Below, piece after piece: positions 30,569-63,671 of a stretch of 64,000 bases of DNA. The translations under genes and the position numbers were made by a program. The notes below the pieces were generated by a model. It worked only from the letters and a program-made list of their open reading frames with translations. It searched no databases and had not been told where the DNA came from. The DNA is from Eledone cirrhosa (Eukaryota), in NCBI GenBank assembly GCA_964016885.1, contig OZ024762.1, positions 19,158,001 to 19,222,000 on the forward strand, read 5' to 3'. Each line of letters starts with the position of its first letter. Position 1 is the first letter of the stretch.

Positions 30569-30695
30569 CTGATGATTTATAAAGAATGAAACAGTTCTAG
30601 TCCTGTAGAATCTCATCTATATTAAAACTTTTATACTCTGCAATGTATTGAGTACCCTACTTACTGTGGTTACCTCCGATTCAACCCGGAATAAC

Positions 30696-30697
<2 letters not shown>
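30569..30697 (+). mobile_element. 5'-truncated hammerhead-type element remnant with conserved tail hairpin
   Basis: CTGATGA 30569-75, GAAA 30588-91, GTC 30600-02 (stem II degenerate, stem I lost); ACTC-TGCA-A-TGTA-TT-GAGT at 30635-30653; ends at (TA)n. Confidence 0.55.
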
Positions 30698-30753
<56 letters not shown>

Positions 30754-30901
30754 TTGCATGTGCTGAGCGGTTAGAGAATCGGATTCGCAATCGTGAGGTT
30801 GTGAGTTCGATTCCCTGACCGGGCCATGCATTATGTCCTTGAGCAAGACACTTTATTTCACGTTGCTCCTTCTGACCTGGATTTGCGACCAATAGATAGT
30901 A

Positions 30902-30966
30902 TTAGCAACTGGAAAGACCAATGGAAACATTGTTTCCTCGGTCCGATTTGACGAAAGTCGATCGTT
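30902..30966 (-). mobile_element. Helitron-like 3' terminus fragment; copies at ~35650-35714 and ~42098-42137
   Basis: Minus strand: hairpin GACCGAGG(G/A)AACA-A-TGTTTCCRTTGGTC then TTTCCARTTG-CTAR-T (CTAG intact in the 42098 copy). Confidence 0.55.
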
Positions 30967-31689
30967 AAAAATATATATCTTTGTGTGTGTTTGAGATGAT
31001 ATATAAAATGTGATATATTTATATATAGTGGGGATTTCTAAAACTTGCTGGTACTGGTTCTCAAGACAATATATGTGTATCTGTCGTAAAATTATATATA
31101 TATATATATGTGTGTGTGTAGGTCTGTGTTTGTGTGTGTATGTGTATGTGTGTGCATACTTTTAACTTGGCCTTGTGATTAAGGTGTGAGATTCCTGGTC
31201 ATAATGTCGTAGGTTCGATTCGTGGACTGGGTGAAACATTTTCTTGATCCAAATACATTATTTCACAATACACATAGCCGAGAGATACCTTTCTCCATTC
31301 TCCATTCACCATTCTCTCTCTCTCACTCTCTCTCTCCCGCTCTCCACTCTCTCTCTCCCGCTCTCCACTCTGCTTTAGTTTCTTCACTATCCCAGGATTT
31401 GAACTCCTAACACACAGACCACCGTAAGTAATACCACAAAACACTCAACCTGACCTTCTAACAACTCAGCCAATTCGCTGCCTCTTCAATAACAAACGTT
31501 TAACATTTTCTCTTCTATATTTCTCTTCTATATTTCTCCCTATATTTCTCTCTATATTTCTCCTTATCGATCTCACACCTTCAAAAATACATGCATCATT
31601 TCTTCTCTTTTGAATTCTTTCATCTTTTTCTCTAAATATAACTTAATATTTTGAACTTTGATAAATTTACATCTTCTTCAAGTTGCATT

Positions 31690-31747
31690 TGAGCCATTAC
31701 TGTAAACACTGAATCTTGATACCGTTTCAGAATCCATGTTTAGTTTT

Positions 31748-31781
<34 letters not shown>

Positions 31782-32190
31782 TTAACTGAGTATTGTCTCC
31801 GGTATATAGCTTTCATCCATATAGAGGAGATAGTTTCGAGTTAATATATCATCTCTACAGAGTAGATAGTTTATAGTATGCCCATAGCATTTGTAACTGT
31901 TGGCCGTTTGATTCCGTCAATTTGTTAATGGAGTCCAGAATTTGACAGAGAAGTCGGCAGGATATAAAGGCTTATCTATATAAATTTTCTCTCTCTTCTT
32001 ATGGGGATAAGGCTGCTTTTTATTATAGTCTTTTTATCTAGAAATTTTATTAATGTCTTCCATTTTGACATGTCGTGTTTGATATATCGTCTTAGTTTGA
32101 GGGCCGCTTCGTTTATGTACAAAGTTTTCACTGTCCTACACTGTCCTGTCAAATACTTTCATATAATCCATTCCGTTGCTTTTATTCTTT
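31690..32190 (-). pseudogene. Highly degenerate RT fragment, R4/Dong-like non-LTR element
   Basis: Minus frames: MDYMKVFDR (DY.KAFD), MSKWKTLI...IPIRR, GHTINYLLCRDDI / NYLLYMDE (HLLYMDD), with frameshifts and a (TAG)n insertion. Confidence 0.6.
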
Positions 32191-32639
32191 TACTGATCTC
32201 AAGTTATTAAACTGTAAGGCCATGCTGGGGCAACGCCTGGATATAAACAATCATATCTACCCCAATACTTATTAGACAATCATATCCACCCCGGTACTTA
32301 TTAGACTGTAAGGCCATCCTGGGGCACCACCTGGATTTAGACAATCATATCCACTCCAGAACTTATTTGACTGTAAGGTAGAAGTTCTCAAACTGTTTGG
32401 GCCACCGTCCCCCTCACGGCCATGTAATACCCTCAACTCCCCACCCCTATTTCCAGAGAGATCTCCCTACACGCAAATTGTAAATAATATATAATAAATA
32501 ATATAATATATACTATGTATAAATAAATATATATATATTTTTTAATTTTACTATAAATATATGTGTATCATTTGATATTTAATATACTATTATATCATCT
32601 CTACCGCTAATATAGTAAATGCAAAACTACATCTATTTA

Positions 32640-32832
32640 TCTATATGCTATAAAACCTTTGTGATTGTGTCTTGTCTGTAATTCAATACGGCTAAAACGG
32701 CGCATAATGGGAAAGTATTTTGAAAGGAAGTTGTCCTTAAAATGGGAATACAAATGGAATAAAACAAGTTTCGCGTAAATCGAGCACGGGTTCCCGAGAT
32801 ACGGCGTTTCTTCGGGTACCTTCATAAATAGA
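32640..32832 (-). repeat. Dispersed repeat, homologous to 35935-36110 (+)
   Basis: Shared GATTTACGCGAAAC.TGTTTTATTCCATTTGTAT.CCCATTT..TTTCCCATTATGCGCC. Confidence 0.8.
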
Positions 32833-32854
32833 GAGTAGATTGAAAGAGAGACTT

Positions 32855-32926
32855 GTCTGTGTATATTTTAATTATTTAAAAATTATTTTTAAGTGAACAT
32901 GACCCAGGGGGTCACGTGTGGTCTAG
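32855..32926 (+). mobile_element. Helitron-like 3' end; second copy 34813-34913 (-)
   Basis: Hairpin (C)GTGACCC-A(A/G)(A/G)-GGGTCACG followed by G(G/T)TGGT-CTAG|T. Confidence 0.7.
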
Positions 32927-33282
32927 TATACATTATAAATATAGATCAAAATAAAATTATTTCAATCATATACCATAAATAGCTTATATACATTATACAG
33001 GCTCAAAGCTATATTTTACGGAGCTTTATTTATAAGAAATTATATTTAGGTATAATAGTATACAGTATATTAAGAACATAGCAAGCAAAAAGTATATTTC
33101 GGGATAGAAGATAATTTTACTTACAATGCGTTCAGACTGCGGATATATTATGACAATGAAATTATACTAATTAACATAGTTAATTAACAAATTAAGACTG
33201 TCATCAGTCATCAGAGGACTTGAAATATAGCTTTTTTTCGAGAAAAATTCAAATCTTGAGTTGGAAAATAGCGTCTACACCG

Positions 33283-60900: not shown

Positions 60901-61162
60901 TTGTTTCAGTCAGGTGAATTGTACCTGTAATTCCATGAGCCAACCATGCCACACACTATATCTCGCTGAATCCCCATGAGAGATATACATGTCTGTGGAA
61001 TGCTCAGCCACTTGCACATTAGCTTCACGAGCAAACAGTTTTGTTTTCAGAACAACTGGAATACTCCTCCTCTGAACAGACGGAGGCCCAGTGCACACGC
61101 ATATATCTGTACGTACGTATGTATGCATGTATGTAAATGCTTAGTAAATGTTTGTGTGCATG

Positions 61163-61217
<55 letters not shown>

Positions 61218-61247
61218 AGAACAAAAGATGCTTAAAAGAGTTCCATG

Positions 61248-61318
61248 TATTTTATTATGCGCATTTCAAAAACAAATATCATCATGCAATAATATTTGTG
61301 TTTTCATCAGATAAAACA
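61248..61318 (-). ncRNA. Minimal type I hammerhead motif within a (TA)n-flanked element ~61210-61495
   Basis: Minus: TGTTTTAT-CTGATGA(61310-04)-16-bp stem II (1 mismatch, GCAT loop)-GAAA(61267-64)-TGCGCA-TA^ATAAAATA; residual inverted arm ~61378-61405; tail hairpin 61412-61436. Confidence 0.85.
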
Positions 61319-61649
61319 GGAGGACATGATATGAAGGCTAAAAAACACTTGTGGATAGTTCAGTTTTAAATCAACATATTTAACCATCTTTTGCTCTTAT
61401 ATATTATGTATACTCCAGTCCTACAAACTGTAGAGTGCTTCTTATACGATATCTGCATTGCTTTATTGTACTACAATAAAACTCACCTCCTACATTATAT
61501 ATATATATATATATATATATATGGATGTAGATATAGATATTATGTATATGATATATACTGTATTATGTATATATATGTATATGATATATATTATGTATAT
61601 ATATGTATATGATATATGTATGTGTGTATATATATGTATTTATTTATAT

Positions 61650-62060
61650 ATACACACACACACTCACATTCTCACACACACATTCTCACACACACACATG
61701 CTCACACACACATTCTCACACACACACATTCTCACACACACATTCTCACACACACATTCTCACACACACATTCTCACACACACACACTCACACACACACT
61801 CTCACATACACACTCACACACTCTCTCACACACTCTCTCACACACTCTCACACACACACTCTCACACACTCACACACACACTTACACTCACACACACTTA
61901 CACTCACACACACTTACACTCACACACACTTACACTCACACACACTCACACTCTCACACACTCTCACACACACACTCACACTCACTCGCACTCACTCGCA
62001 CACACTCGCACACACTCGCACACACTCTCACATACACACATACACACTCTCACACACACA

Positions 62061-62154
<94 letters not shown>

Positions 62155-62920
62155 CTCACACACTCTCACTCTCTCTCACACACTCACTCACACACTCACA
62201 TATATATATAAATATATATATATATAAAACAAATAACAATAACAGCAATACTTAGATATTCTAAAATGGAGGTAAAATTCTGTAATACATCTCCACCGAG
62301 ATTTAATACATGACAACAACATCTCGTATATAACACAACACCATTCACTAAACAGGACAAGATGGAGTCGAAAATTGAAGATTTTTAAGGGAATCTCACT
62401 TTGCCTCAAATCTCGTGAGAGCGATATCATTGTTGTTTCAATGACTCTCTCTTTTTCCTTCACTCTCATTCGTCCCCTTCTTCTCCTCTATTTATCTTCA
62501 TCCTTTTCTAAATAAATCTTCTCCTTCTACTCCTTATTCTTTTTCTTCTCTTTCTTCTCTTTTTTCCTTCTTCTCTTTCTTCCTTCTTCTTCTTCTTTTT
62601 TTCTTCTTCTTCTTTTTTTCTTCTTCTTTTTTTCTTCTTTTTTTTCTTTTCTTTTCTTCTTTTCTTCTTTTCTTTTTCTTTTCTTCTTTTCTTCTTTTCT
62701 TGTTTTCTTTTTCTTTTCTTCTTTCGTTCTTCGTTTCTTCGTTTCTTCTTCTTTCGTTTCTTATTTAATCTCATCATCATTTTCTCCCCCCTCCCTCCTC
62801 CTCTCCTCCTCCTTCTCTCCTCCTCCTTCTCTCCTCCTCCTTCTCTCCTCCTCCTCCTCTCCTCCTCCTTCTCTCCTCCTCCTTCTCTCCTCCTCCTCCT
62901 CTCCTCCTCATCTCCTCCCC
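61650..62920. repeat. (CA)n/CTCA tract (to ~62200) and (CTT)/(CCT) pyrimidine tract (~62470-62920)
   Basis: Direct inspection. Confidence 0.9.
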
Positions 62921-63213
62921 AAAGTGTTGTCACAACACCTTTCTAAGAGATGGAAACTCTGAAAAAAATCTGCGGCTTCAGAAGCATCTGATGATGTTGA
63001 CCAGTTTTCCTTTTCGGGTAGTGTTTTCGATGCTCAGAGAATGGTATTGGTCGAGAGGAAGGCCTTTCCGCACTTAAAAAAACCTTCAAAACAGAGGCAT
63101 TGCTTGTTGAAGATCTGTTACAGGTTCGTGGGGCTGGCCGTAGCCTAAAGGTGCACAATTTTCTGTAATCTGATAAGCGGTTGCAATACTCTTAGCAGAG
63201 TTTGCAGCCGTCT

Positions 63214-63271
<58 letters not shown>

Positions 63272-63373
63272 CTTGAAGGCGGCTGACCGAACTTGAAACT
63301 GCTAAATGTCTGGCCGCCTTCTTGTCTCTGCCTTTTTAGCCCCATCCATTATATTCCTTTGTTAAATTTTGGA

Positions 63374-63431
63374 ATACCTGATGATGTCACCGGATTCATA
63401 CTGAACCCGGTCATTGAAATGTTCATAGTAT
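63374..63431 (+). ncRNA. Type I hammerhead motif, stem II base degenerate
   Basis: ATAC-CTGATGA(63378-84)-TGTCACCGGATTCA/TGAACCCGGTCATT-GAAA(63416-19)-TGTTCA-TA^GTAT. Confidence 0.7.
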
Positions 63432-63671
63432 AATAAACCTTTAAGGAATTACACTAGTCCGGCCTCCTGTTATTTTATAATAATATATATATATATATAT
63501 CATATTGTTAATATGATATCCCTGAAATATATATAACGAAATAAATATGGTTTTATAAATATAGTTTCCATTTATTTAATATCATAAATATACTCCAAAT
63601 ACTTGTTGAGTGCTTTTATATCAGTTATAAATATTTACTCGTTGTTAACCCAACAATTTAAATATAACTTT

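Follow-up and report, generated by a model that had tools for sequence, protein, structure and literature searches.

What gives the insertions of Hydra-clade Penelope-like elements (PLEs) their mirror-image arms with a tail on one side, and what fixes the positions at which these arms end? The question is raised by a stretch of 64,000 nt from Eledone cirrhosa (assembly GCA_964016885.1, contig OZ024762.1, positions 19,158,001–19,222,000 of the forward strand; hereafter the window, numbered from its first letter), where a first-pass annotation had listed eight small hairpins of the form RCTC-stem-loop-stem-TN-GAGY. All eight are present, at the positions and strands given in Table 1, and every copy in the window abuts a (TA)n run. 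Each is the first of two conserved, covarying hairpins of its element type; insertion ends fall into two classes, just upstream of the one or the other, and an inverted insertion combines one short end (before hairpin 1) with one long end (before hairpin 2). The protein of the element, with reverse transcriptase (RT) and endonuclease (EN) domains, probably binds both hairpins and starts copying next to each.

Bulged hairpins in the window and in the genome

A scan of the window for the motif (RCTC, stem of at least 3 pairs, TN, GAGY) gives 9 matches versus 0.4 per local shuffle (at most 3 in 200 shuffles). In 119 evenly spaced 10-kb loci (1.19 Mb) of the same genome (G000, 2,996 Mb), strict matches number 70, versus 5–20 in ten shuffles. 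Enrichment here is seen for a 2-nt 3' bulge only (60 versus 13.6 in shuffled sequence), bulges of 0, 1, 3, and 4 nt being found 18, 12, 9, and 17 times versus 16.6, 12.4, 13.0, and 16.6; 45 of the 60 2-nt bulges start with T. A (TA)n run begins 35–92 nt 3' of the hairpin in 52 of the 70 matches (control 6.2%), and the matches group into families, each with its own fixed distance to the downstream (TA)n. A full hammerhead core lies upstream of 17 matches (control 1.6%); most of those lacking it look 5'-truncated or due to chance. Extrapolation from approximately 59 excess matches per 1.19 Mb gives about 150,000 hairpin copies in 3.0 Gb, and a single exact 25-nt variant of family F1 has 2,792 genome matches.

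The stem was claimed to change in sequence while keeping its pairing and the 2-nt 3' bulge, and this is what is seen: in 23 hairpins from the genome, aligned by choice of motif and with three invariant outer pairs, 138 of 138 cells are paired with 29 double changes, above 500 of 500 shuffles, and slid controls are 18–43% paired. A covariance model ranks the eight window sites as its top eight matches, although three of them were in its training set. The hairpins had also been placed downstream of hammerheads in divergent families. A whole hammerhead on the same strand precedes those at 30635, 33847, 34333, and 35206, but not the other four; the latter arms are 5'-truncated, and the hammerhead is present in their parent elements. 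These families are truncated ends of autonomous Hydra-clade PLEs. Rfam has no family over the hairpins at E ≤ 1 in seven junction-bearing loci, and no match over any window hairpin among the 150 matches listed of 244.

Two hairpins and two classes of insertion ends

In full-length elements the hairpin motif (NCWC-stem-UN-GWGN) occurs twice between the hammerhead and the start of the open reading frame (ORF); the second hairpin was first seen at the upstream junction of autonomous full-length elements. The next prediction was that each of the six window families has a hairpin 2 immediately beyond its long end, and the genome was searched for each tail end followed by RCTC. The matches (some double listings and chance matches included) number 448 for F0, 289 for F3, 174 for F1, 123 for F4, and 24 for F21, with none in reversed controls. 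A canonical hairpin 2 followed by a Hydra ORF is found for F0, F1, F3, and F21; hairpin 2 of F4 is a variant with a reduced GCAC/GTGC stem and a 5-nt loop. The distance from the hammerhead cut to hairpin 1 is 38–59 nt (12 of 13 junctions measured) and 61 nt in F20, and the spacing of the two hairpins is 71–166 nt across the 13 junctions. The hairpins also differ in the first inner pair, which is C-G in 12 of 12 canonical hairpins 2 and U-A in 10 of 13 hairpins 1.

Alignment of the 13 junctions to the window and the 119 loci gives 193 alignments, 116 of which abut (TA)n. Almost all of the TA-abutting ends (114/116) lie within 25 nt of a hairpin start, 51 at hairpin 1 and 63 at hairpin 2, with 2 elsewhere. 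Short ends are mostly found at –12 to –3 of hairpin 1 (46/51), and long ends at –10 to –2 of hairpin 2 (59/63), each taken as the rightmost possible position given 0–6 nt of TA-like overlap with the target. In contigs of run X2, possibly the source sample, loose TA ends at L277:786 and 866 precede hairpins at 792 and 870. The mapping bears out the claim that inverted arms stop 5–10 nt short of the hairpin, and it supports, together with covariation and conservation in distant relatives, the proposal of a conserved cis signal that sets the inverted-arm end. As first described, the signal was right for hairpin 1; a second hairpin, absent from the window, appears to fix the other (tail) end.

The two classes are strongly associated within insertions. 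Among 35 outward-facing pairs of the same family, 34 are long+short, none is long+long, and one is short+short; if both ends abut TA, all 27 of 27 pairs are long+short (50% expected, p ~1e-9). The sole short+short pair belongs to a doubly folded F0 insertion in the window (22743–22977), which has four arms, one of them entering the first bases of hairpin 1 and turning back. Elsewhere in the window (39010–39161), beside an F1 insertion, two short-ended F0 stubs flank a single (TA)n run and point towards each other; Hydra copies accumulate in the same microsatellites.

Of the 34 pairs, 23 have a short arm that extends beyond the long arm on the 5' side, 8 show the reverse, and 3 are equal within 3 nt; the long arm consists of the tail only in 8 pairs, e.g., at window 38774–38985. 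A few rows of this comparison have large gaps at their centre and are not reliable. The arms are mostly separate element copies and not one folded back on the other, since the short one often extends further 5' and the tail of the long one is missing from it. A fold-back (snap-back) origin of the inverted arm is rejected for most pairs on these grounds, but it may apply where the long arm is the longer one (8 pairs) or the two are nearly equal (3 pairs). The option of a second-strand priming site, raised in the first-pass annotation, is likewise disfavoured, as in most pairs neither arm can be a copy of the other. Linear RNA cut by the hammerhead is rejected as the template, only 1 of 114 mapped 5' ends lying within 5 nt of the cut.

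Parent elements and distant relatives

The hairpin is found at the termini of autonomous PLEs. At one random locus (L144), an element of 5.2 kb is flanked on either side by the hairpin and has an ORF for a YRDD reverse transcriptase and an endonuclease; a search with this RT in G000 gives 37,417 first-look candidates, 144 of which were scored. A Pfam search of one such ORF has no match, hence the endonuclease call rests on motifs; Pfam GIY-YIG matches in G000 are mostly to Neptune-type and Poseidon-type loci, not to the hairpin families. Parents of F0 are 3.5 kb and those of F3 3.9 kb, some of them in tandem arrays, within a range of 3.5–5.2 kb.

Seven families, F0, F1, and F3 among them, have a single parent ORF that contains YRDD and a C-terminal I/V-I/V-Y...Y-I/V/F-G, the proteins being 42–45% identical to the first of them. 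The Hydra clade is defined by RWK for GxKF/Y, DKT for DKG, a CxCX5C linker, no CCHH, and CxxC and CxH flanking conserved E and N (Craig et al., 2021; main text of PMC8557442). In the seven aligned proteins, RWR (6/7) or RWT (1/7) is seen at the RWK position, the third residue being unlike the published K; DKT (6/7) or DKA (1/7) at the DKG position; a CNC-x5-C linker and, near the C-terminus, CxLC and CxH in all seven; no CCHH; and one cysteine between the GIY- and YIG-like motifs. Hammerheads are found at 12 of 13 family junctions, one search key being unmatched at the remaining one; that of F21 scores 29.1 bits with Rfam Hammerhead_1, below the cut-off of 34. As judged from protein motifs, (TA)n, and the hammerhead, the hairpin-bearing families are Hydra-clade C-terminal EN+ PLEs, the assignment being made by motif match to the published definition with published sequences compared as text. 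A Nematis or Neptune assignment was dropped after testing the motifs of PMC8557442: the CX2-5CxxC linker with CCHH is absent from the hairpin-bearing families and present in L050, L052, and L053. Non-LTR retrozymes were also rejected, as the window copies are solo or inverted and 5 of the 6 families connect to an ORF-bearing junction.

Of 8,000 candidates scored in a protein search, 2,049 are relatives at E ≤ 1e-30, and an alignment of 48 of 120 listed relatives leads to 78 metagenome loci (from the best 80 of 385) and 18 genome-bin loci, in total 80 clusters; a first metagenome scan and a viral-contig scan show no relative. Fifty-four loci extend 100 nt or more upstream of the ORF, and 39 of them contain the strict motif there (0.43 in shuffles, none on the opposite strand); among 75 loci with downstream sequence, 34 contain it on that side (0.97 in shuffles, 8 on the opposite strand). 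In a relaxed scan, which requires one inner pair and the 3' flank and allows paired outer variants, 23 of 37 distant Hydra-type families have two hairpins; the 37 families yield 55 matches with a 2-nt bulge, 0–2 for other sizes, none on the opposite strand, and 0.13 in shuffles. The proteins of these families are approximately 40–50% identical. Hairpin spacing is 58–83 nt and the cut-to-hairpin distance 36–61 nt. Ends were mapped at six distant loci: four stop 3–8 nt short of a strict hairpin, and the other two, judged by eye, stop short of variant stems.

Two C-G pairs and the bulged U hardly vary among the distant hairpins, 55 of 67 of which have ACT after the stem; outer pairs covary too (TCTC/GAGA, GCAC/GTGC). 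The third inner pair, left free in the scan, is Watson–Crick in 42 of 55 hairpins, G-U in 4, A-C in none, and otherwise mismatched in 9; G-U without A-C would weakly favour the sense strand. Of the six published Hydra consensi (File S7 of PMC8557442), three contain the hairpin by eye. A single perfect hairpin follows the cut at 43 nt in coral Hydra-2_Amil and at 38 nt in sea cucumber Hydra-2_Ajap; Hydra-1_Ajap begins with two hairpins, spaced by about 61 nt, and its 3' end does not reach the first of them. By eye, the Hydra-1_Amil consensus ends 47 nt after the cut with no hairpin, the copepod element shows a near match only, and the octopus element no clean match. Hammerhead stem III of several published Hydra elements (File S2 of PMC8557442) is ACTC/GAGT, like the outer stem of the hairpin, by coincidence or shared origin.

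Several further observations concern the elements themselves. Tandem arrays of full-length F0 units occur at L276 and L277; neighbouring units differ at 1 position in L277 and at 7 with 1 gap in L276, and the two arrays at 27–29 with about 20 gaps. Such low divergence between neighbours is compatible with rolling copying of one template, and is not proof of it. Retrozyme-like mini tandem repeats of 169–257 bp, comprising hairpin 1, hairpin 2, and the ORF start, are seen at L242/L243 and L288; the L242 unit lacks the 5' half of the hammerhead. A U3-A8 variant of the hammerhead core is shared by two Hydra and two Neptune-type families (L277, L220, L050, L067). In Neptune-type families, the hairpin motif is absent from the tails of the L050, L053, and L067 types; in two of them (L050:830-952 (–) and L067-type), the short end is followed after about 5 nt by a common 8-nt motif, ACTCGTGT, and the tail of a third contains another hairpin, which are possibly the Neptune counterpart of the signal. 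Hydra PLEs also occur on 18 contigs of bacterial genome assemblies (L376–L393), likely as animal host DNA carried over. Short F0 3'-end pieces with at least 99% identity to L277:600-866 are found in runs X5 and X6, labelled as two other organisms, from close relatives, contamination, or transfer; among the data sets listed as containing L277:600-1400, none is of RNA.

Table 1. Hydra-derived features and one LINE-type frame in the window
Feature	Family	Position	Strand	Remarks
Hammerhead	F4	core from 30569, cut after 30596	+	cut 38 nt upstream of hairpin 1
Hairpin 1	F4	30635..30653	+	long end ~30697 into (TA)n; parent runs into Hydra-type ORF start
Inverted short-ended arm with hammerhead	F20	33556..33694	–	ends ~5–10 nt before hairpin 1
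Minimal type I hammerhead	F20	33736..33785	+	core to predicted cut; stem II 10 bp, stem I 9 bp; predicted activity
Hairpin 1	F20	33847..33868	+	61 nt after cut; tail to ~33933
Inverted short-ended arm	F1	33979..34134	–	
Hammerhead	F1	34226..34275	+	core to predicted cut site
Hairpin 1	F1	34333..34352	+	long end ~34420; parent with Hydra ORF, hairpin 2 90–91 nt downstream
Hairpin 1 (G-C outer pair)	F21	35206..35227	–	59 nt after cut; long end ~35133; parent hairpin 2 99–101 nt downstream
Hammerhead	F21	35318-35287	–	upstream of hairpin 1
Short-ended partner arm	F21	35512..35639	+	hammerhead at 35555
Inverted short-ended arm	F1	38774..38895	–	joined directly to hairpin 1 of partner
Hairpin 1	F1	38901..38920	+	forward arm tail only (38901 to ~38985); non-overlapping twin-priming layout
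Hairpin 1	F0	43934..43957	–	long end ~43880; arm 5'-truncated within hammerhead stem II; parent 3.5-kb tandem autonomous element, hairpin 2 78 nt downstream
Short-ended partner arm	F0	44025..44081	+	
LINE-type RT open frame, 598 aa		45860-47656	+	holds ninth motif match
Ninth motif match		47293-47312	–	antisense of LINE-type RT ORF; without TA end; recurs in copy L081; taken as chance
Inverted short-ended arm with hammerhead (61310-61264)	F3	61213..61379	–	
Hairpin 1	F3	61412..61436	+	long end ~61496; parent 3.9-kb autonomous, hairpin 2 90 nt downstream
Hairpin 1	F1	63592..63611	+	solo long-ended stub (~63497-63679)

How the hairpins may act

Positional and comparative evidence makes it likely, in our judgement, that the RT-EN protein binds each hairpin and primes from the two nicked strands of the target, most simply as a dimer on one RNA. 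Reverse transcription would start 2–12 nt upstream of a bound RNA hairpin, and the protein would nick both strands of the (TA)n target. Extension of one target 3' end from the UA-rich stretch before hairpin 2 would give the long end; extension of the other, from that before hairpin 1, would give the short end. Two protein subunits on one RNA would most simply account for the two starts. The two cDNAs, truncated and joined, would form the inverted repeat, with a one-sided tail equal to the hairpin spacing. Hairpin 2, being 3' of both starts, would not be copied into the ends, which would explain why only upstream junctions and tandem arrays contain it. The hairpins would act on sense RNA, as hairpin 2 is 3' of both ends and uncopied, the bulge is strand-specific, and, more weakly, G-U occurs without A-C.

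More tentatively, twin priming may be programmed: a dimer would dock on two non-identical hairpins of one RNA and copy from both, and full-length long-ended offspring of a single copy would need RNA cut at both hammerheads and circularised. We hold this fuller version to be possible, at somewhat less than an even chance. If a single copy is transcribed into linear RNA, no hairpin 2 follows the ORF, so such offspring need either a tandem donor or circular RNA; since tandem donors are present in G000, the data do not require circles.

Several results weigh against initiation at the two hairpins. Mapped ends without an inverted partner make up 56 of 126 (34 long, 22 short), hence twin priming is not always completed; the two arms of 26 of the 34 pairs share sequence upstream of hairpin 1, an overlap that would require strand displacement if both were copied from the same RNA, the alternative being a second RNA. 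Among the 193 alignments, 77 lack an adjoining TA run; 12 of these fit one of the two classes, 2 continue through hairpin 2, and 63 are unclassified, many of them looking like partial or internal matches. For F20, the pattern of tail end and RCTC has no match in G000, and neither junction nor hairpin 2 was found; the F4 long end exists without a canonical hairpin 2. Five of the 37 distant families show no motif match and nine show one. Choice by motif inflates the paired percentage in the alignment of 23 hairpins, and when folded in context, only 17 of 25 hairpins have an outer-stem pairing probability of at least 0.75. Finally, Neptune-type families in G000 have short and long ends without the motif, which is therefore not needed for PLE tails in general.

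The same geometry may be read in DNA. Copying would then start further 3', and the GIY-YIG EN would recognise a single-stranded or extruded hairpin, cut a few bases upstream, and so produce the short and long ends as the intermediate is resolved. In favour of this, Craig et al. ascribe the tail to resolution by the EN (main text of PMC8557442), the D. virilis EN needed tail sequence to cut plasmids (cited in the main text of PMC11167929), and sense RNA and sense single-stranded DNA are indistinguishable from sequence alone. We regard this as unlikely, however, given that hairpin 2 is almost never inside an insertion 3' end (2 of 193 alignments), that a spacer varying from 5 to 25 nt and an asymmetric, strand-specific bulge do not suit a duplex DNA site, and that PAc, a Poseidon element, initiates internally on RNA in vitro (PMC11167929). 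It is less probable still that the hairpins mark RNA 3' ends, made upstream by a host nuclease, termination, or self-cleavage and used in ordinary target-primed reverse transcription. Two fixed ends would then arise without internal initiation, and RNA-seq read ends of PAc do coincide with its start sites (main text of PMC11167929), but two separately processed RNAs should pair randomly, contrary to the absence of long+long and the single short+short among 35 pairs, and Rfam places no ribozyme or other family over the hairpins in the seven loci.

A passive hairpin, keeping its UA-rich neighbour single-stranded for the nicked (TA)n primer with no protein recognition, seems very improbable: the ends do fall at 1–6 nt TA-like matches to the target, but C-G pairs, the bulged U, and the trailing ACT are kept among such diverged families, and many other nearby UA-rich stretches are unused. 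Bulged hairpins bound by dimers act in packaging and translation control in RNA phages, and hairpin 2 lies 61–96 nt before the conserved ORF start in the 23 distant families that have two. We give the least credence to the hairpins being mainly such sites for the element protein with end positioning as a side effect, as this alone explains neither the tight end offsets nor the long+short rule; as a second role, translation control is compatible with initiation at the two hairpins.

Inverted copies with a tail are standard for PLEs (PMC8557442), and their hammerheads were described by Cervera and De la Pena (2014; PMC4209133). The families studied here share with the published Hydra clade the diagnostic protein motifs, a hammerhead in the pseudo-LTR (pLTR), (TA)n targeting, and tailed inverted and tandem insertions (Craig et al., 2021; PMC8557442). 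However, they are longer (3.5–5.2 kb versus <3 kb) and have longer tails (71–166 nt versus 30–40 bp); the word hairpin is absent from the main text of PMC8557442, which describes no cis signal. A close parallel is PAc (Poseidon, Anolis carolinensis; Frangieh et al., 2024; main text of PMC11167929), in which an AC-rich stem loop contains two internal sites of RT initiation: cleavage and extension occur on both DNA strands and depend on RNA 3' of these sites, a dimer is predicted, and a protein-binding motif is proposed within the first 172 nt of the ORF. As in the model proposed here, two starts lie downstream of the hammerhead with the tail between them, and hammerhead cleavage is not required; however, judged by the main text, the PAc starts are inside one stem loop within the ORF, whereas each presumed Hydra start has its own copy of a sequence-specific bulged hairpin on its 3' side; these hairpins precede the ORF and are conserved across phyla. 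Non-LTR retrozymes (bioRxiv 10.64898/2026.07.22.740005) are also short hammerhead-bearing PLE derivatives, but the window copies are truncated products of autonomous elements and not tandem non-autonomous units; the main text of that preprint mentions no hairpin, stem, tail, or initiation.

What is new is a defined, duplicated, clade-wide cis signal; the step itself is known from one other PLE, PAc. In LINE-1 twin priming, an inversion arises when both target 3' ends prime on the same RNA, the internal site being chosen by chance complementarity and used occasionally. Eight of the 34 Hydra pairs have the non-overlapping layout; unlike in LINE-1, both Hydra sites would be set by hairpins that the element encodes, and most pairs have overlapping arms. 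Structured RNA bound by an RT also sets the start or stop of templating in epsilon of hepatitis B virus and in the boundary stems of telomerase RNA, although epsilon priming is protein-primed inside a bulge and the telomerase stems set a stop, unlike the Hydra hairpins. No description of a duplicated bulged hairpin in Hydra PLEs was found in the literature searched, outside of which lie subscription papers, older Penelope biochemistry, and Repbase notes.

The origin of PLE inverted repeats and one-sided tails has been an open question since the class was described, and the hairpin model could explain the odd mirror-image-plus-tail shape of Hydra insertions. The RNA motif bound by a PLE protein has no definition in the literature examined; the hairpin is a small clade-wide candidate with an exact geometry. 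It also marks Hydra elements, one of whose ORFs escapes Pfam. PLE RTs are the sister group of telomerase RT (PMC8557442), so their positioning on RNA bears on telomerase origins. If programmed twin priming is true, the hairpin pair would be a portable RT-loading signal of about 150 nt, and, with circular RNA, the PLE hammerhead would gain a function.

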